A stretch of DNA of 64,000 bases from an uncultured Bacilli bacterium. Its GTDB lineage: Bacteria > Bacillota_I > Bacilli_A > RF39 > UBA660. Numbering within the stretch: the first letter of the stretch is position 1; each line of letters starts with the position of its first letter. The stretch covers positions 8,214 to 72,213 of the forward strand of contig CAKORG010000001.1 of assembly GCA_934101495.1 (NCBI GenBank). The letters are read 5' to 3'. Shown piece by piece: positions 6,398 through 64,000 of this stretch. The notes beneath the pieces were generated by a model. The model did not search any database, had not been told where the DNA came from, and saw only the letters and a list, made by a program, of their open reading frames with translations. Both the position numbers and the translations under genes were made by a program.

Positions 6398-6422
6398 AAG
6401 AAAAAATGGACTTTTTAGTCCA
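6398..6422 (-). terminator. rho-independent terminator of the 144-aa gene (stem TGGACT/AGTCCA followed by a T-run on the minus strand); the stop codon lies in the loop
   Basis: Hairpin tggacTTTTTagtcca at 6407..6422 with an A-run 6400..6406 on the plus strand (T-run on the transcribed strand). Confidence 0.6.
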
Positions 6423-6849
6423 TTAAATCTTTGGCATCACAATCTTCACTAAACGGAGAAAGTAAACAAGTTGTACATGTTTCATAATTTTTTTTTGCTT
6501 CTTTTGTGCCACTTACTAAACTTAAAGTAGCATCAAGTATTGTTGGTACCATAAATATTAAGACACCAAGAATAAATTTATTAATCAAACTGTTAGCTGC
6601 TACCATAATTGATTTTTCATCTTTTGAAATTGCTGCTTTTCCAAATTCAATAGAACCTAAAATAATTATAATCAAAGGAACTAATATTTTGATGATGTAA
6701 AGTATGTACCCAACTACTTGAAAAACTTTTAATGTGCCACTATTACTGCTACAGATATCAACTGGTGTAATTTCAAGGTCATCAGCAACAGCAATACTTG
6801 GTGTGAGTAAAACAATAAATAAGCTTAAATATTTAATTATTTTTTTCAT
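6415..6849 (-). CDS. small secreted two-TM protein; minimal member of a three-copy paralogous family in this window (signal peptide, conserved Cys, two TM helices, CxxC...C tail)
   Basis: 144 aa; signal peptide MKKIIKYLSLFIVLLTPSIAVA; segment DICSSNSGTLKVFQVVGYILYIIKILVPLIIIILGSIEFGKAA...KFILGVLIFMVPTILDATLSLVSGT...YETCTTCLLSPFSEDC aligns residue by residue with the C-terminus of the 489-aa protein at 38421..39890; own promoter and terminator. Confidence 0.6.
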   Translation of the reverse strand: MKKIIKYLSLFIVLLTPSIAVADDLEITPVDICSSNSGTLKVFQVVGYILYIIKILVPLIIIILGSIEFGKAAISKDEKSIMVAANSLINKFILGVLIFMVPTILDATLSLVSGTKEAKKNYETCTTCLLSPFSEDCDAKDLMD

Positions 6850-8795: not shown

Positions 8796-9737
8796 CTAAC
8801 TGCATGTATAACCACTGGCTGTCATTTCAAAATAAATAACTTTGGCATCTGTTCCGTACGAATATATTGATTTCAAATTCATTGCGTCGTTTTTAACATT
8901 TGAAAGATTTATTGTAGTTTTAAATTTTAAAATTCCATTTTCAAGTGTTATATTTGATGATACACCCCCAATATTGTTGTATGTTGCTTTAGATATTTGA
9001 TAGTTGTTATATAAATTATTAAAGTTAGGGTCGCTTGTGCTTACCTCATATATTAAATTTGTTACATATACTTTGTTACTATTTAGTATATATTCTAATT
9101 TTTCATAATTCTTATTGTTTGTACACGTCATGGTTGCAATTCCTTCTTCTGTTACATTAACAATATGAGATGGGTATTCATTTTCAAGTATTTTCACTAA
9201 AGATATAGTAGTTGTCATAGTATCATTTAAATCATAACTGGCATCCGTTTCAGAGTTTGGACTCAAAATATCTTGCAAATAAATTCTTTGAAGCAATTTT
9301 TTGTTGTCACTATATAAATTTACAAAATAATGTGCATCTTTTAGTTCTAAAACTTTGCTAGTTAAATTCGTAATTTTGAACTTAATTGTATTGTTTTCAA
9401 TGTTGAAATTACTTATTTTAAAACTTTCTTCTGTTATTTCAAGATCATTTGCTATTTTGTATTCTTTTACTGATGTTTCATCTTTTGTATCATCATTTTT
9501 TTTAGCATCGTTGCTAGGTGTATTTGGCACTACCACTTCTGGATTAAGATAACTATTTATGTATGCTGATATTTCTGGTAAGTATAAAACTCCAGCGACA
9601 AATATAACAAATATTACAAATATCCATAAAATTCCAAAAATACTTGCTTTCTTTTTATCTTGTACTACAGCTAAAGTTGTAGGTACTAATTCTTCTTCTG
9701 AAATAACTATTTGTTTTTTCTTAGCCAATTTAATCAT
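8796..9737 (-). CDS. hypothetical membrane-anchored extracytoplasmic protein
   Basis: 313 aa; single N-terminal TM (ASIFGILWIFVIFVIFVAGVLYL) then an Asn/Thr-rich extracellular region; 9-nt gap to scpA, so probably co-transcribed. Confidence 0.5.
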   Translation of the reverse strand: MIKLAKKKQIVISEEELVPTTLAVVQDKKKASIFGILWIFVIFVIFVAGVLYLPEISAYINSYLNPEVVVPNTPSNDAKKNDDTKDETSVKEYKIANDLEITEESFKISNFNIENNTIKFKITNLTSKVLELKDAHYFVNLYSDNKKLLQRIYLQDILSPNSETDASYDLNDTMTTTISLVKILENEYPSHIVNVTEEGIATMTCTNNKNYEKLEYILNSNKVYVTNLIYEVSTSDPNFNNLYNNYQISKATYNNIGGVSSNITLENGILKFKTTINLSNVKNDAMNLKSIYSYGTDAKVIYFEMTASGYTCS

Positions 9738-38420: not shown

Positions 38421-39890
38421 TTAGAATTTTCCACTACGTCCATCTCCACCGCCGCCATTTTCCGATTTACTTTTAGCCTTATTCTTTTCAGTTGTTGTAC
38501 CATCTGACAACTTTTTAGGTGAACATTTACTTTCATCACTAGGATTTAGTATACAATCTCTACATCCGCGATATTTGTTTGATATCTCAGTTGTACCATC
38601 TATTAAACTTAGGAAAAAGTCTAGCACTGTTGGTATGAAAAATATTATTAGACCAATGAGAACTTTTTTAGCAAATTGTACTGTTGCATCTTTCATTGCT
38701 TTATCGTCTCCACTTAATGACGCTTTTCCCAGGTCTATACTTCCCAATACTATTAATATTATTGGCACTAATATTTTGATAACTATTATAATATATCCTA
38801 TTACTTGGAATACCAGTAAAGATGTACTATCGTTAGAACAAAGGTTGACTTGCGTTATTCCTAGTTTTTCCAAATCTTTTTTTGTATTATCAACTGGGTC
38901 ATCAGCTCTTTTATCCGCACTATCAGATGGTTTTGGATAATTTTTGTAATCATCTGTTGTAGGACTATCATATGTTGTTAAATAGACATAAAACGAACCT
39001 AAATTGTCAACTTCTAATAATGTTATATCATCAGGAAAAGTATTGTTTTCTAAAAATAGAAAATCAAAATCTTTATCTCTAACCATGAAATTATACATTT
39101 TATAGGTTACTACATCACTATTTGTTCCGAAATTTGCTATGTACATCGTTTGGGAAAAATCATTCTTTGAAATATTGAAATAGTAACTTTTACCCTTTTC
39201 TCTTTGAACAACACCCAACTCAATATCGAATTTTCCTTTATAAAGGTCCGTTGTTTTTTGATATTTTTTACATGCAATTGCATTACTTTCTTTACAATTA
39301 TTATTATTATTATTATTATTATCCGAGTTATTATCATTACTATTATCACTTATTGAGCTTATCGTAATATTTTTAGAATTACTTTCATAATAATTAGTAT
39401 CATAAACAATATATTCGTCATTTTTATTTTTGTATAAATATATTTCTGGACAACCTTGCTTCTTATCATAATATTGAAAAAAGTTTTCAAGGTAAAAATA
39501 GTCTTTATAAACAAAGTCATAGTTGGCCACTTTGTGAGTTCCATCATGAGATTTTTCTGTTATTTTATTATTTTTATATGTAACATAAGAAACAGTGTGA
39601 ACTTCCTTTTCATTATTATAATCATAACTTACTTCAAATTTATTTTCATCAATAGTAAATGTCATTGAATTTAATCTCTCAATATTTAATTTTTTTAAAT
39701 CATATTTACATACAGTTGTATTTGTAGTAGTATTACTTGATTGCCCACTTGGCTGAGTTGTTTTTTTTGCTATTGCTGGGTTACTAAATCCACTTGCAGC
39801 GGTATAATAGCAATCATAAGTTTTAGCTCCCACCGCTAAAGGAAGTAATACATATACAAAAAAACTAAAAATCAATAATTTACTTTTCAT
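38421..39890 (-). CDS. large secreted protein: signal peptide, about 330-aa N/D/K-rich extracytoplasmic region with a poly-Asn tract, plus the conserved C-terminal two-TM Cys-tail module shared with the 144-aa protein
   Basis: 489 aa; C-terminal NLCSNDSTSLLVFQVIGYIIIVIKILVPIILIVLGSIDLGKASLSGDDK...KVLIGLIIFFIPTVLDFFLSLIDGT...YRGCRDCILNPSDESKC aligns with 6415..6849. Confidence 0.6.
   Translation of the reverse strand: MKSKLLIFSFFVYVLLPLAVGAKTYDCYYTAASGFSNPAIAKKTTQPSGQSSNTTTNTTVCKYDLKKLNIERLNSMTFTIDENKFEVSYDYNNEKEVHTVSYVTYKNNKITEKSHDGTHKVANYDFVYKDYFYLENFFQYYDKKQGCPEIYLYKNKNDEYIVYDTNYYESNSKNITISSISDNSNDNNSDNNNNNNNNCKESNAIACKKYQKTTDLYKGKFDIELGVVQREKGKSYYFNISKNDFSQTMYIANFGTNSDVVTYKMYNFMVRDKDFDFLFLENNTFPDDITLLEVDNLGSFYVYLTTYDSPTTDDYKNYPKPSDSADKRADDPVDNTKKDLEKLGITQVNLCSNDSTSLLVFQVIGYIIIVIKILVPIILIVLGSIDLGKASLSGDDKAMKDATVQFAKKVLIGLIIFFIPTVLDFFLSLIDGTTEISNKYRGCRDCILNPSDESKCSPKKLSDGTTTEKNKAKSKSENGGGGDGRSGKF
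39297..39320. repeat. (ATT)8 trinucleotide microsatellite (coding-strand AAT = Asn8) inside the 489-aa gene
   Basis: Perfect att x8 seen directly. Confidence 0.8.
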
Positions 39891-59116: not shown

Positions 59117-59228
59117 AATTCACTCTCCTTTATATATTGTACCAAATTTTTTTAAATTAATCTATGCATAATAATTATTTAATTTAAGAAAAAAGCATTA
59201 ACTCATTAATAAAGTCTAATGCCTCTTA

Positions 59229-62036
59229 TTATTTTAGTATTTTAGCTAAAAATTCACCAGTATATGATCCTTTGCATTTGGCTACTTGTTCTGGAGTTCC
59301 AGTAGCCACAATTTTTCCACCATATTTACCACCATCTGGACCTAAATCTATGATGTGGTCTGCTACTTTTATAACATCTAAGTTATGTTCAATTACTATT
59401 ACTGTATCACCATTATCCACTATTCTATTTAGAATAACTAATAGTTTTTTAATATCATCAGAATGAAGTCCTGTTGTTGGTTCATCAAGTATAAATACTG
59501 ATTTGCCTGTTGCTTTCTTTTGAAGTTCTTTAGCAAGTTTTACACGGCCAGCTTCCCCCCCTGATAATGTTGGTGCTGATTGACCTAATTTAATGTATGA
59601 AAGTCCGACATCCATCATTACCTTTAGTTTATTGTAAATTTTTGGAACATTTTCAAAGAATTCCAGAGCTTCACTTACTCTCATGTCCAACACTTCACTT
59701 ATATTTTTGCCTTTATATTTTATTTCAAGAGTTTCTCTGTTATATCTTCTTCCTTTACATACATCACATGGAACATATACATCTGCTAGGAAATGCATTT
59801 CAATTTTCTTAACGCCATCTCCCCAACAATTTTCACATCTTCCACCTTTAACATTAAATGAGAAACGACCTTTGTCATATCCGCGCATTTTTGCTTCTTT
59901 TGTTTGCGCAAATAAATCTCTAATATCATCAAATACTCCTACATACGTTGCGGGATTACTTCTCGGTGTTCTACCTATAGCATCTTGAGTTATTTGGATT
60001 ACTTTGTCAATATTTTCAAGGCCTGTTATTTCTTTACAAACACCTGGAATTACTTTACTTTTATAAATTTCTGATGCTAGTCTTTTATATAAAACTTCGT
60101 TAATAAGTGAAGATTTACCTGAGCCAGATACACCAGTTACAACTACTAATTTGTTAAGTGGAATATCTACATTTATACTTTTTAAGTTATTTTCTTTAGC
60201 ACCTTTGATACTTATTTTTAAACCATTACCTTTTCTGCGTTTTTCAGGCACTTCTATTTTTAACTCTCCGCTTAGGTATTTTCCTGTTAAACTATTTGGA
60301 TTTTTCATAACTTCTTCTGGCGTGCCAGCAGCCATAATTTGTCCACCATATTCACCTGCGCCTGGACCAACATCTACTAAATAGTCTGATGCTAGCATAG
60401 TATCTGTATCATGCTCAACAACAATTAGTGAATTACCTAAATCACGCATTTCTTTTAATGAATTAATTAATCTTTCGTTATCTTTTTGATGAAGGCCAAT
60501 ACTAGGTTCATCAAGAACATATAAAACACCTGATAATTTTGAACCAATTTGGGTTGCAAGTCTTATTCTTTGTGCTTCCCCACCAGATAATGTTCCTGCA
60601 CTTCTTGTTAAAGTTAAATATGATAAACCAACATTATTTAAGAATTCTAGTCTAGAAATTATTTCCTTTAGTATAAGGTTACTTATTTCTTTTTCTTCGT
60701 TATTTAGTTTTAACTTTTTAACAAAATCAAGTAAGTCACTTATAGACATATCACACATATCAAAAATATTCTTATCATTAATATATATAGATAATACTGA
60801 TTTTTGTAATCTTTTTCCTTTACAAACTGGACACTCTGTTTCAATCATATACCCTTGAAGCCATTCCCTGATCCATCCACTTTTTGTTTCAACATATCTT
60901 CTTTCTAGTGTTGGAATTACACCTTCATATGTACCTTTTGTATTTCTGGTACTGCCATTTTTAGAAACATAGTTAAATTCAAGTATTTCATCTGTACCAT
61001 ATAATATGTAGTTTAATTTTTCTTCAGGAATATCCTTTACTGGTGCAAACATATTGATATCATATTTTTTACATATAGTTTCAATTTGGGTAAAATACAT
61101 ATTTGAATCCATACTTAAGGCAGATATAGCACCTTCTACTAAAGATTTATTTGGATCTGGTATTAGTAAATCTTTACTAATATGAAGCTTTGTACCTAAA
61201 CCTTTACATTCTTCACAAGCTCCGTATGGGGCATTAAATGAAAATAATCTTGGTTCTAGTTCTGGTATTGAGTAGTTACATATTTCACAAGCATATTTTT
61301 CACTCATGAATATTTCTTCATCATCAACTAGTAATACTACTTTGCCATCAGCTTTCTTGGTGCTTGTTTCTACGGCTTCAAATATTCTGCTATATTCTTC
61401 ATCATCTACAGTAATTTTATCTATAATAATATCTATATTGTCTTTAATATTTTTTTCTAGAGTTATTTCTTCATTTAAACTCATATTTTTGCCATTTACG
61501 CGAACACGAGTAAAGCCTTCTTTACGAAGTTCATCAAATAAATCTTTATGGGTTCCCTTTTCGCCATGAACTACAGGTGCTAATATGGCAACTGTTTTTC
61601 CTTTGTATTCCATTACTTTATTAGTCATTTCTTCAATACTTTGACTTTTTATTGGTGTATGATGAGTTGGACAATAAGGTCTACCAATTCTGGCAAATAA
61701 AAGACGCAAATAATCGTAAATTTCAGTTATTGTACCTACTGTTGAACGTGGATTTTTATTCGTAGATTTTTGGTCGATTGATATTGATGGTGATAATCCT
61801 TCAATAGAGTCTACATCTGGTTTTTCATTTACACCAATAAATTGACGAGCATAAGCTGATAGGCTTTCTACATATCTTCTTTGCCCTTCAGCATAAATTG
61901 TATCAAATGCTAAACTACTCTTTCCTGAGCCTGATACTCCGGTCATGACAACTAACTTATTTTTAGGTATTTCTAAATCAACATTTTTTAAATTGTTCTC
62001 TCTAGCTCCTTTTATTATTATTTTATCATTATTCAT
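59229..62036 (-). CDS. uvrA: excinuclease ABC subunit A
   Basis: Two ABC ATPase modules (GVSGSGKSSLAFDTIYAEGQRRYVESLSAYARQF...), Zn fingers. Start revised to ATG 62036 (MNNDKIIIKGARENNLKN...) with RBS AGAGGTG; the track start at 62087 is upstream in frame. Confidence 0.93.
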   Translation of the reverse strand: MNNDKIIIKGARENNLKNVDLEIPKNKLVVMTGVSGSGKSSLAFDTIYAEGQRRYVESLSAYARQFIGVNEKPDVDSIEGLSPSISIDQKSTNKNPRSTVGTITEIYDYLRLLFARIGRPYCPTHHTPIKSQSIEEMTNKVMEYKGKTVAILAPVVHGEKGTHKDLFDELRKEGFTRVRVNGKNMSLNEEITLEKNIKDNIDIIIDKITVDDEEYSRIFEAVETSTKKADGKVVLLVDDEEIFMSEKYACEICNYSIPELEPRLFSFNAPYGACEECKGLGTKLHISKDLLIPDPNKSLVEGAISALSMDSNMYFTQIETICKKYDINMFAPVKDIPEEKLNYILYGTDEILEFNYVSKNGSTRNTKGTYEGVIPTLERRYVETKSGWIREWLQGYMIETECPVCKGKRLQKSVLSIYINDKNIFDMCDMSISDLLDFVKKLKLNNEEKEISNLILKEIISRLEFLNNVGLSYLTLTRSAGTLSGGEAQRIRLATQIGSKLSGVLYVLDEPSIGLHQKDNERLINSLKEMRDLGNSLIVVEHDTDTMLASDYLVDVGPGAGEYGGQIMAAGTPEEVMKNPNSLTGKYLSGELKIEVPEKRRKGNGLKISIKGAKENNLKSINVDIPLNKLVVVTGVSGSGKSSLINEVLYKRLASEIYKSKVIPGVCKEITGLENIDKVIQITQDAIGRTPRSNPATYVGVFDDIRDLFAQTKEAKMRGYDKGRFSFNVKGGRCENCWGDGVKKIEMHFLADVYVPCDVCKGRRYNRETLEIKYKGKNISEVLDMRVSEALEFFENVPKIYNKLKVMMDVGLSYIKLGQSAPTLSGGEAGRVKLAKELQKKATGKSVFILDEPTTGLHSDDIKKLLVILNRIVDNGDTVIVIEHNLDVIKVADHIIDLGPDGGKYGGKIVATGTPEQVAKCKGSYTGEFLAKILK

Positions 62037-62293
62037 ATATAGCACCTCTTTTTCATATTTTGACACAAAAAGATAATTTTCATGCAAAAATAATATATCA
62101 CAAACATATATTTGTAGTCAAGAGAATTTTGTAATGTTCCAATGTAAAATTTAGTAATTATTTAAATAAATGAATATAATTAATGTAAATAACTCATTTT
62201 TAAGTGTTTAAAATTTGACAAATCATTGATTATATGGTAAAATAATGGCGACTTAAAGGAAAAGTGTTTTCTAAAGCGAAGGGGGTACGTTAT

Positions 62294-63832
62294 ATGTACG
62301 AAGAAGGAAAGAAAAATTTAAGTTTAAATTGGGGATCACTTGCAATTAAACTTGTGATTCTTGCAGTTATAGTATTTATAGCTGGTTGGATATTTGTTAA
62401 AGTAACTGGCAACACATCGACCAAATCTAAAAATACTTTAGCTGATAGTAATAGTGAATATATTAACAATATTAACACTATGAAAACTGCAGCATTTGAA
62501 TATTTTACAAAATCAAAATTACCTGAAAAAGTTGGTGCAACTGAAAAAGTAACACTAGCTCAAATGATTAATCAAAAGTTGTTAATTGACTTTACTAACG
62601 ATGGTAAAGCTTGTGACACTAATTCAAGTTACATTCAAACTACTAAGACTGCTGATGGTAATTATGCATTAAAAGTTAGTTTAACTTGTGGTAAACAATC
62701 TGATTTTATTGTTACTACTATTGAAAAAACTGCTTGTGATAATAATGGAACTTGTATAGTGGATAATACTAAAACAAATACTGACGTTGTTGACAATAAT
62801 AAAAATAGTAATATGAATAACAATAACTTAAGCAATAATAATAGTAGTAATAGTTCTAATAATTCAAGTTCTATTACAACAAATAATACTAACAAAGGAA
62901 ATGGTTCGAGCAAAGGAAATAGTTCTAGTTCTAGTTCAAGCACAAGTACTAAAACTACAGTTACTACAAAGATTACTATTAAAATAAGTTGTACCAATGG
63001 ATGTTGTCAAACAAATTGTAATAACAACAACAATAATAATAACAACAATAATAATAACAACAATAATAATAATAATAATAATGATAAACCAACACCTAGT
63101 AAAGTTAGATATTATAAATATGTAAAATATAGTGATTGGAAAGATGGTTATTCTAATGCAGATAATGCAGAAAATAAAAAACAAACTATAACAACATATA
63201 ATTATTGTAAGGAATACAAAAAAACTTACTATTCAACTGGTTATGTTACAGATAAGACAAACATTGGAAAATATAATTATGAAATACAATTCTTAGATTT
63301 ACCAAGTGATGTTAATAATGTTGACGTTGTAAAAAGAAGTGCATCATATTTCAGTAATTCAAATACTGATTATCGTGCATACATTAGAAACAGAGAAAAC
63401 GTTTATATGACTGGCAATTCAGGTAAATATGATGTTTCTATTAATAATGTTTCTTCATTTAGAGAATCATCATTAAAGAGAAGTAATTTTAGTTTTAAAG
63501 TTTCTGATGCTTATTACAACAGAACTGAAAAGAATTGGGCTACTGAAATTACTGTTGATTATAAAAATTTAAGTAATGTTACACCATATTATGCTAGTAA
63601 TTTACGTTATGATGTATATTTTGTACCATTAAAGTTTGATATTAGTTATTCAAGAAATAGTACTTGTTATAGAGATTATGAAAATAGTCAAGTTAAATAT
63701 GAAAATTATAGTGTGAGTGATCCTGAAGAAGAAGAAATATGGAAGCATAGAACTTATGAATATAAATGGAGTAAAGAAACTTCATTAGAAGGTTATACTT
63801 ATACTGGTCAATATGAAGATAGAGCTGAATAA
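62294..63832 (+). CDS. membrane-anchored surface protein with a long poly-Asn/Ser low-complexity tract
   Basis: Preferred start ATG 62294 (MYEEGKKNLSLNWGSLAIKLVILAVIVFIAGWIF...) after RBS AAGGGGG; the track start is 62264. N21 run and S-rich tract. Confidence 0.5.
   Translation: MYEEGKKNLSLNWGSLAIKLVILAVIVFIAGWIFVKVTGNTSTKSKNTLADSNSEYINNINTMKTAAFEYFTKSKLPEKVGATEKVTLAQMINQKLLIDFTNDGKACDTNSSYIQTTKTADGNYALKVSLTCGKQSDFIVTTIEKTACDNNGTCIVDNTKTNTDVVDNNKNSNMNNNNLSNNNSSNSSNNSSSITTNNTNKGNGSSKGNSSSSSSSTSTKTTVTTKITIKISCTNGCCQTNCNNNNNNNNNNNNNNNNNNNNNDKPTPSKVRYYKYVKYSDWKDGYSNADNAENKKQTITTYNYCKEYKKTYYSTGYVTDKTNIGKYNYEIQFLDLPSDVNNVDVVKRSASYFSNSNTDYRAYIRNRENVYMTGNSGKYDVSINNVSSFRESSLKRSNFSFKVSDAYYNRTEKNWATEITVDYKNLSNVTPYYASNLRYDVYFVPLKFDISYSRNSTCYRDYENSQVKYENYSVSDPEEEEIWKHRTYEYKWSKETSLEGYTYTGQYEDRAE
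63020..63083. repeat. (AAT/AAC)n microsatellite encoding an uninterrupted run of 21 Asn
   Basis: aataacaacaacaataataataacaacaataataataacaacaataataataataataataat seen directly. Confidence 0.8.
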
Positions 63833-63846
63833 GCTCTATCTTTTTT
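63818..63846 (+). terminator. rho-independent terminator (GATAGAGC-tgaataa-GCTCTATC + T6); the stop codon lies in the loop
   Basis: Seen directly. Confidence 0.65.
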
Positions 63847-63906
63847 ATTGCTTTTAATCTACACAAATTTATACTTCTTTTATATTTATTTTAAAGCAAA
63901 ATAAAA

Positions 63907-63937: not shown

Positions 63938-64000
63938 TTAACCATTTTTAACTGAAGTACAATCTGACCCGGTTGGATTACTTACACATGCTGCACAATA
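63938..64000 (-). CDS. partial CDS (C-terminal 20 codons; gene continues past the window end): third member of the two-TM Cys-tail family
   Basis: Only one minus-strand frame is open to the window edge: ...YCAACVSNPTGSDCTSVKNG*, matching the tail pattern Y..C..C..(S/N)P...(D/E).C of the 144-aa and 489-aa proteins. Confidence 0.4.
   Translation of the reverse strand, partial: YCAACVSNPTGSDCTSVKNG

Follow-up and report, generated by a model that had tools for sequence, protein, structure and literature searches.

The window analysed here, a stretch of 64,000 nucleotides from an uncultured Bacilli bacterium (contig CAKORG010000001.1), encodes two complete proteins, P1 and P2, and the end of a third, which share a module of two transmembrane (TM) helices and a cysteine-containing tail. 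The explanation that we favour, with moderate confidence, is that all three are VirB2-like hairpins with a pilin fold, stapled by disulfides and recruited by a type IV secretion system (T4SS), perhaps together with a Tad pilus, and that they are either pilus or stalk subunits or anchored accessory proteins which display variable ectodomains. The argument rests mainly on the gene context of the module family, in which arrays of module genes precede T4SS genes, because membership in the Pfam family PF18895 (T4SS_pilin) is only suggestive at the sequence level.

The module and its copies in the window

P1 is the minimal form of the family; P2 carries a large ectodomain in front of the module. Their parts, and what the window contains of the third copy, are located as follows.

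6415..6849, (-): P1, family member in minimal form, 144 amino acids (aa), from the open reading frame (ORF) call
6424..6777, (-): module of P1, aa 25-142, envelope of the module hidden Markov model (HMM)
6649..6726, (-): TM1 of P1, aa 42-67, from hydropathy
(-): charged loop of P1 between TM1 and TM2, EFGKAAISKDEKSIMVAANSLI
6511..6582, (-): TM2 of P1, aa 90-113, from hydropathy
Cysteines of P1: C33 ahead of TM1; C125, C128 and C137 in the tail (CxxC...C)
38421..39890, (-): P2, family member of 489 aa, from the ORF call
38862..39824, (-): ectodomain of P2, aa 23-343, from AlphaFold2 on alignment A3
38508..38861, (-): module of P2, aa 344-461, HMM envelope
38736..38813, (-): TM1 of P2, aa 360-385, from hydropathy
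(-): loop of P2 between TM1 and TM2, DLGKASLSGDDKAMKDATVQFA
38598..38669, (-): TM2 of P2, aa 408-431, from hydropathy
Cysteines of P2: Cys351 ahead of TM1; C443, C446 and C456 in the tail
63938..64000, (-): 3' end of the third family member, last 20 codons (63941..64000) and stop codon (63938..63940), translated as YCAACVSNPTGSDCTSVKNG up to the stop

In BLASTP, residues 17-144 of P1 aligned with residues 332-463 of P2 with 61 identities in 132 positions (46%, E=1e-28), which is way above chance level. Thus the alignment of the P2 C-terminus with P1, from which a sequence-only reading of the window had derived a paralogous family, is genuine. Both proteins matched the module HMM (E=1.4e-46 for P1, E=2.2e-48 for P2) and both begin with a segment that is signal-like in hydropathy. 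In P1 some 20 extracellular residues, Cys33 among them, separate the signal peptide (about aa 1-22) from the two-helix module, behind which comes the Cys tail. In P2 a signal peptide of about the same extent (aa 1-22) is followed by an ectodomain of about 320 aa, the C-terminal module and a K/G-rich tail of 28 aa. The loops between the helices are rich in K, D and E in both. The architecture proposed earlier, i. e. signal peptide, variable N-region, Cys, TM1, charged loop, TM2 and CxxC...C, is borne out by hydropathy and by the positions of the motifs.

A word-indexed search with P2 yielded 99 proteins, each with the module, and a module profile was made from 40 sequences (alignment A1). The consensus of the module is C...L.VFQ.IGY.I.IIKILVPIILIVLGSIDLGKA..S.DDK.IK.A...L.KR...G.IIFFIPTILDF.LSL..G.......F..CT.C.L.P.....C., and in the numbering of the P2 module C10, K31, I32, P35, K48, A49, G72, F76, F77, P79, T80, C102, C105 and C115 are invariant or nearly so. 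AlphaFold2 on A1 folded the P2 module as a helical hairpin (H15-52 and H55-89; mean predicted local distance difference test score, pLDDT, 82.8), and the Cys tail contains two short helices. If the signal peptide is cleaved, or the N-terminus very short as in members that have no signal peptide, both ends of the module should lie outside and the charged turn inside. Conservation is far stronger in the module than in the regions joined to it: where the identity to P2 in the module is 65-75%, the N-terminal parts of the proteins are unrelated, and in relatives the module is fused to Glucosaminidase, Peptidase_M15_4, NlpC/P60, Dockerin, Peptidase_C39_2 or esterase domains.

One cysteine before TM1 and three after TM2 were present in 292 of 373 distinct modules. 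The commoner variants have 1+1, 1+5 or 1+7 cysteines, so the total stays even, and the module subfamily that adjoins the T4SS gene c0 (see below) has exactly 1+1. This even parity argues for disulfides that link the two outer ends. The conserved 1+3 cysteines thus probably form a disulfide staple, with a Zn(Cys)4 site as the alternative.

For the ectodomain of P2, AlphaFold2 on A3 predicted two beta-rich domains (about aa 59-177 and 204-305, domain pLDDT about 75-85) that are connected by a poly-Asn linker. Cys61, C147, C199 and C207 of the ectodomain are conserved alignment columns. A Foldseek search of the PDB with the full P2 model returned nothing at E<0.1, i. e. no solved structural relative for the ectodomain, and within the collected protein set its family comprises only about 25 relatives. 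The poly-Asn run itself, NNSDNNNNNNNN, covers aa ~180-197 of P2 (window 39300..39360). Such poly-Asn or low-complexity linkers are a usual feature of the AT-rich genome, with lengths that differ among orthologues.

The third copy runs off the window. Its fragment is not significant against the module HMM when taken alone (E=0.2), and the profile positions that it covers, 101-117, are the correct ones. Over 59226-63850 the window is 88% identical to locus L025 and 85% identical to locus L011, and at the exact site of the third copy both loci hold two tandem module genes, one of 116 aa and one of 111/115 aa, with the tails ...CAGCISNPTNSSKC and ...CKDCISSPLNEDKC. Because these syntenic loci hold two tandem module genes with matching tails, the third copy, which had been proposed to end at 63938, is real. 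For the same reason a fourth copy probably lies just past the end of the window. In a six-frame scan of the window with the module HMM no further copies were found. By synteny, the third copy is of the type that follows a Tad-like cluster, the Tad part being placed just beyond position 64000.

P2 lies beside RecX and P1 beside PcrA, about 31.5 kb apart, in the window and in its closest relatives. In two loci, L001:3441-5181 (CAG:460) and L004:3444-5233 (UMGS686), the orthologues are adjacent in the order RecX-P2-P1-PcrA, and in L007, L008 and L019 a single module gene occupies the RecX/PcrA site. The adjacency suggests that P1 and P2 are dispersed copies from a tandem duplication, and implies that a rearrangement or insertion split the tandem P2-P1 pair. 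The exact sequence of P2 is also present on two metagenome contigs, with RecX on one side and RimP-NusA on the other. The genes annotated round the copies are housekeeping genes, namely PcrA, ScpA/B, RecX, RimP-NusA-IF2-RbfA-TruB, UvrA, Lgt and a Pyr_redox_2 family oxidoreductase. The nearest public relatives of the window are metagenome-assembled genomes labelled uncultured Tenericutes, Bacilli or Erysipelotrichaceae (UMGS1410, 92% identity; RUG14232, 88%; Firmicutes bacterium CAG:460, about 80%), which we take from their names to be reduced-genome gut Bacilli of the RF39 type.

Family size and gene neighbourhoods

With the A1 profile, 10,118 representatives of 50%-identity clusters were found at E<=1e-3 and 6,136 at E<=1e-10, and a scan of genome contigs confirmed at least 306 module stretches. 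The module family is thus very large, with uncultured gut 'Tenericutes'/Bacilli as its hosts, and the suggestion of a three-member, lineage-specific family does not hold. Database names, looked up for nine relatives, read 'hypothetical protein' only. A tblastn search of the module against 50,697 phage and 72,556 plasmid records gave no match, no PHROGs family matched P1 or P2, and full-text literature searches (RF39 with VirB4; PF18895) returned no paper that describes the module family in Bacilli.

To describe the surroundings of the module genes, 80 loci were drawn from the confirmed stretches, one genome per species; ORFs were called, module genes were identified with the HMM, and the remaining proteins were clustered. 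Tandem arrays of 1-7 module genes were found, in which the genes share one orientation and follow one another at a median distance of 56 bp; 21 of the 80 loci have at least three. In 36 of the 80 loci a gene of cluster c0 lies directly 3' of the last module gene on the same strand, with a median gap of 15 bp. The proteins of these 36 loci have diverged to 21-62% identity.

The gene order after the array is c0, c2, c1 and VirB4, followed, where the contig continues, by a large wall hydrolase and VirD4. The c0 proteins are polytopic and about 716 aa long, and two members matched TrbL_4 (1.1e-5) and TrbL/VirB6 (2.5e-4). The c2 proteins have about 103 aa and two TM helices; of the 15 scanned, 11 matched TcpE and six PrgI, below the cut-off but consistently. 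The c1 proteins are soluble, about 190 aa long and always 5' of VirB4, with a mean column identity of 71% (e. g. L061:18747-19313). We guess that c1 is the N-terminal domain of VirB4 split off, for which a single TraC_F_IV match (E=0.061) is the sole support. VirB4 is short (about 595 aa; AAA_10 9e-14, P-loop_TraG 1.6e-13) and was found in at least 29 loci, a number limited by contig ends. The downstream wall hydrolases carry SpoIID, Glucosaminidase plus M23, C39_2 or NlpC/P60 domains, and the downstream VirD4 coupling protein matched T4SS-DNA_transf (1.5e-53) and TraG-D_C (7.9e-22). Searches of the PDB sequences with c0, c1 and c2 profiles found nothing, and the putative assignment of c0, c2 and c1 to VirB6, VirB3 and the VirB4 N-terminus draws on weak Pfam matches, size, topology and position. 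The gene set 3' of the arrays as a whole is a T4SS of the Gram-positive type as outlined in PMC12857230. Two examples of c1 with the VirB4 gene are given here.

L058:14697-15323 and L058:15326-17110: c1 and VirB4
L061:18747-19313 and the next gene: c1 and VirB4

The window proteins are close to the array genes linked to this system. Of the 140 module genes at VirB6-type loci, 126 were matched by P1 and 131 by the P2 module, with E values of 1e-26 to 2e-31 and 37-46% identity. P1 and P2 are therefore as near to T4SS-linked array genes as to one another.

The array gene just 5' of the VirB6-like gene belongs to a distinct and more divergent subfamily of 116-446 aa, in which a single Cys precedes TM1 and a single Cys stands at the very C-terminal end (..CGIK, ..CGVGT). 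This subfamily could be a dedicated T4SS component, not a variable paralogue. Four of its members are listed.

L013:2444-3169: member of the c0-adjacent subfamily
L020:15886-16389: member of the c0-adjacent subfamily
L022:12455-13699: member of the c0-adjacent subfamily
L023:5429-6403: member of the c0-adjacent subfamily

On the other side, a Tad-like cluster whose last gene is TadZ-like lies directly 5' of the array in 27 of the 80 loci, with a median gap of 58 bp. This cluster encodes DUF5411, two CpaB/RcpC-SAF proteins, a CpaF-type T2SSE ATPase (2.8e-29) and two polytopic proteins, together with two pilin-like proteins of about 82 aa, two TadE-like proteins and one TadZ-like protein of 329 aa. 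The labels TadB/C, TadE and TadZ are given by position and shape, as Pfam has no matches to these proteins, and should be read as putative. In some uncultured gut Bacilli (L061:1-20333, L057, L049, L020 and others) the two systems form one super-locus, in which the Tad-like cluster is followed by the module array and by the T4SS genes through VirD4.

Such an arrangement raises the question whether the module proteins serve the Tad-like pilus instead of the T4SS, as a platform, an anchor or a minor component. The position of the array straight after the TadZ-like gene speaks for this, and so does the lineage of the window, where the module pair stays with the Tad cluster though no T4SS follows; the third copy belongs here. 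However, the Tad-like cluster has small single-TM pilin-like and pseudopilin-like proteins of its own, and the gap between the array and the TadZ-like gene is looser than that to the VirB6-like gene. Five loci (L058, L039, L033, L071, L051) have arrays beside T4SS genes with no Tad cluster within 10 kb. The module, moreover, has two TM helices and lacks a processing motif of the Flp type. A role in the Tad pilus alone therefore appears distinctly improbable to us. Because the Tad and T4SS arrangements each occur separately, the array is the element common to both. An identification of the module proteins as Flp/Tad pilins was rejected separately, in view of the two TM helices, the Sec-type signal peptide and the occurrence of PF13400 (Tad) in only 2 of 40 members (E=0.13).

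Pfam matches and the weight of the T4SS interpretation

In Pfam and NCBIfam, P1, P2 and a neighbouring 522-aa protein returned only noise (Srz, DUF1686, MscL far below cut-off), and PF04956 (TrbC/VirB2) was absent at E<=1 for P1, P2 and the P2 module. Among relatives, PF18895 was the commonest Pfam match: it was found in 19 of 40 at E<=1 (best 1.4e-5) and in 41 of 131 at E<=0.01 (best 1.8e-9). The alignments always span positions ~4-71 of the 71 in the model, i. e. TM1, loop and TM2. By extrapolation from the relation of E values to bits, the best match has about 38 bits and thus exceeds the gathering cut-off of PF18895, which is 26.6 bits; ten short relatives that were scanned were all below it. 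The features of this family, a signal peptide and a two-helix hairpin with a short charged loop, are found in the module proteins by hydropathy, AlphaFold2 and the register of the Pfam alignments. PF04956 did not appear in the summaries of the top 25 families for the 40 and the 131 relatives, where matches of a few members would not show.

The sequence-only reading had reported no match to TrbC/VirB2. For P1 and P2 themselves this stands, as neither has a direct match in Pfam, NCBIfam or PHROGs. It appears not to stand at the level of the family, with PF18895 in 41 of 131 relatives and T4SS genes downstream in 36 of 80 loci. The same reading had held that a confident match to a characterised family would remove the novelty of the module. 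The relation to PF18895 reduces the novelty and does not remove it, since this Pfam family is itself uncharacterised in monoderms besides Patescibacteria.

Care is required with the automatic annotation of the family, which produces false 7TM labels. Two relatives, P0238 and P0211, pass cut-offs of eukaryotic families (Frizzled, 24.1 against 22.3 bits; 7TM_GPCR_Srz, 22.9 against 22 bits), and these matches are spurious. Weak T4SS_pilin matches are likewise credible only with context. In the PDB sequences the module profile found only transmembrane noise of the rhodopsin type (E>=0.14). PDB searches by sequence or fold are uninformative here because the module is a bare hairpin.

Two helices and a charged tail would also fit some other small membrane-active protein, such as a holin, a bacteriocin or immunity protein, a mechanosensitive-channel-like protein or a sporulation membrane protein, and NCBIfam gave a weak MscL match (E=0.0027). 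With 17.7 bits this match is far below its cut-off of 180, the copies have no phage or bacteriocin genes beside them, and PHROGs, phage and plasmid records contain no match, on which ground a holin or phage protein was rejected. The scans turned up no sporulation genes, either among ten window products from the vicinity of P1 and the third copy or in the Pfam calls around P2. We thus consider this group of explanations highly improbable, in line with the sequence-only reading, which had seen no holin or sporulation protein in the module. It had also taken the host for a spore-former; this finds no support in the products scanned or in the relatives, which are uncultured gut 'Tenericutes'/Bacilli.

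Several observations weigh against the T4SS interpretation. P1, P2 and the P2 module alone do not match PF18895 at E<=1, and the PF18895 matches that were inspected have 15-23 bits, where spurious Frizzled and Srz matches of the same proteins have 20-24 bits. Homology to VirB2 by sequence is thus suggestive, being carried by a minority of the members and by the frequency and register of the matches, and fold searches with the module return merely generic helical hairpins. Ectodomains of hundreds of residues and fusions to enzymes are atypical of polymerising pilins. P1 and P2 sit amid housekeeping genes (PcrA, RecX, RimP-NusA), and no ORF of the window falls in the VirB4, c0, c1 or c2 clusters of the related loci. 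In the lineage of the window (L011, L025, L038, L017, L076) the genes that come after the module pair at the Tad cluster are the unrelated ones for the 522-aa protein and UvrA and not those of a T4SS, and none was found within 10 kb of the third-copy site in the syntenic loci. Finally, much of the conservation of the neighbourhoods could be due to the shared ancestry of related species.

A possible interpretation of these observations is that the module is a generic two-helix anchor for diverse extracellular domains, with no link to a T4SS or Tad system, and that the clustering reflects an island of surface proteins and inherited synteny. This would account for a module that is so well conserved yet fused to unrelated N- or C-terminal domains, for the RecX/PcrA context of P1 and P2 that is kept across species, for the lack of a T4SS beside the copies in the lineage of the window, and for T4SS_pilin scores that mostly fall within the range of spurious matches. 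On the other hand, the 15-bp median gap to the VirB6-like gene on the same strand in 36 of 80 diverged loci resembles an operon, and minimal members such as P1 have no passenger and hence nothing to tether. The conservation of the hairpin and of the 1+3 cysteines is stronger than a passive anchor requires, and at least one member matches PF18895 at E=1.8e-9. On balance a generic anchor seems rather unlikely to us, and recruitment of VirB2-like hairpins by the T4SS remains the explanation that we prefer.

Proposed mechanism and comparison with known systems

According to this explanation, the module protein would be exported by Sec and its signal peptide removed. The two long hydrophobic helices would enter the membrane as a hairpin, with both ends outside and the K- and D-rich turn in the cytoplasm. 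The Cys before helix 1 and the CxxC...C after helix 2 would then share the outer face, where disulfides could staple the ends. The pilins of RP4 and Ti are closed by head-to-tail cyclisation; disulfide closure here would be comparable in effect. The arrays lie about 15 bp 5' of the T4SS genes in the same orientation and often after a Tad-like cluster, from which we infer that the hairpins may be recruited by the machinery. They could build a short pilus or stalk through the wall as its subunits, or be membrane-anchored accessory proteins of such a structure. The variable N-terminal ectodomains, which range from 20 aa in P1 and about 320 beta-rich aa in P2 to wall hydrolases or a dockerin elsewhere, would be exposed on the cell surface, where they could serve contact, adhesion or the remodelling of the wall. 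P1 would thus be the bare form, P2 the form with an ectodomain, and the third copy the Tad-adjacent form.

The closest known counterpart is found in Patescibacteria (candidate phyla radiation, CPR). There, VirB2-like PF18895 proteins are encoded in arrays of 2-11 divergent genes near virB4, and they are essential in Southlakia epibionticum (10.1101/2025.01.22.634366 = PMC12102498; PMC12857230). These arrays are treated by Quinonero-Coronel et al. 2025 (PMC12102498) and by Wang et al. 2023 as cited in PMC12857230. A review states that VirB2 is absent from Gram-positive T4SSs with the exception of Patescibacteria, whose systems are unique among monoderms in possibly making conjugative pili (PMC12857230).

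The module family shares with the CPR arrays the small Sec-exported two-helix hairpin, the tandem arrangement of divergent paralogues (2-11 in CPR, 1-7 here), the best Pfam match, PF18895, and the location beside a chromosomal T4SS of the monoderm type with VirB3-, VirB4-, VirB6-, VirB1- and VirD4-like genes. The hosts of both have reduced genomes and a separate pilus system. In contrast to the CPR proteins, the module family belongs to Bacillota (uncultured gut Bacilli), P1 and P2 miss the PF18895 model, and most relatives stay under its cut-off. Some copies, including P1 and P2, are dispersed amid housekeeping genes, and the arrays often have a Tad-like cluster on one side and the T4SS on the other. 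Further features that may set the module family apart are the conserved 1+3 cysteines, which are predicted to be extracytoplasmic, and, in many members, ectodomains of 100-500 aa or enzymes. PF18895-type arrays are thus already known, and what the Bacilli branch adds is the putative Cys staple, the large fusions, the dispersed copies and the Tad-T4SS sandwich.

VirB2, TrbC and TraA of Gram-negative bacteria (PF04956 and relatives) resemble the module in their signal peptide, two hydrophobic helices, short charged loop and, by prediction, outside termini. Unlike these proteins, the module comes from a monoderm with no outer-membrane complex, its helices are much longer (about 35-38 residues in the model), it has cysteines instead of cyclisation, and it occurs in large fusions; no pilus has been observed.

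The VirB1-like hydrolases of Gram-positive T4SSs (PrgK, TraG of pIP501 and Orf14 of Tn916; PMC12857230) combine a membrane anchor with wall hydrolase domains, as do some members of the module family (Glucosaminidase, M15 or NlpC/P60), and the T4SS loci in genomes with the module also encode wall hydrolases. Here, however, the anchor is a pilin-like hairpin and not a single TM helix, and P1 and P2 have no hydrolase domain.

With Tad/Flp systems there is the connection that the third copy and 27 of the 80 arrays directly follow a Tad-like cluster (CpaB/RcpC, CpaF-like ATPase). The module differs from Tad/Flp pilins by its two TM helices, its Sec signal peptide and the absence of a processing site of the G/XXXXEY type. 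A Tad-like 'pilin' cluster has been described in the gut clade TANB77, a different lineage, where the pilin-like proteins have a single TM helix (PMC11680825).

If the favoured explanation is correct, VirB2-like arrays would extend to thousands of protein clusters in gut Bacillota, with the same organisation and coupled to a Tad-like pilus. The family would provide a natural series from the bare hairpin (P1) to forms with a large ectodomain (P2) or a wall hydrolase, and a very large set of 'hypothetical proteins' would receive a name and a context. It would also be a possible account of how gut Bacilli with small genomes and auxotrophies contact other cells.

A more far-reaching proposal, which we put forward tentatively and hold to be less probable than the recruitment itself, is that these reduced-genome gut Bacilli possess a chromosomal contact apparatus like that of Patescibacteria. 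It would consist of a Tad-like pilus, a monoderm T4SS and arrays of disulfide-stapled VirB2-like pilins, many with variable adhesin or enzyme ectodomains. By these pilins the T4SS would differ from every Gram-positive one characterised so far. P1, P2 and the third copy would be part of the repertoire, and the diversity of the paralogues would set the specificity for partners in a cell-to-cell, possibly epibiotic or scavenging, lifestyle. Patescibacteria would then no longer be the sole monoderms with VirB2-like pilins, and Bacilli would be a possible donor or recipient of the Patescibacteria-like system.

The window has a G+C content of 26-31%. Its remaining features that were recorded include two terminator-like sites, found by consensus match only, and two ORFs that have no Pfam match at E<=0.001. 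For the hairpin at P1 one site was seen where shuffled sequences gave an expectation of 0.1.

6405..6424, (-): terminator-like hairpin and T-run, overlapping the stop codon of P1
38315..38336, (-): terminator-like hairpin, 85 nucleotides 3' of the P2 stop codon, before rimP
8796..9737, (-): ORF of 313 aa
55165..56817, (-): ORF of 550 aa

The 522-aa protein next to the third copy (62264..63832, (+)) has no Pfam or NCBIfam match, and its exact sequence is not on record. It has an N-terminal TM helix, Cys-rich stretches and long poly-Asn/Ser tracts, with more than 20 N in one poly-Asn run (window 63200..63330). Proteins of its cluster (c24) lie in divergent orientation beside the Tad/module locus in seven loci.

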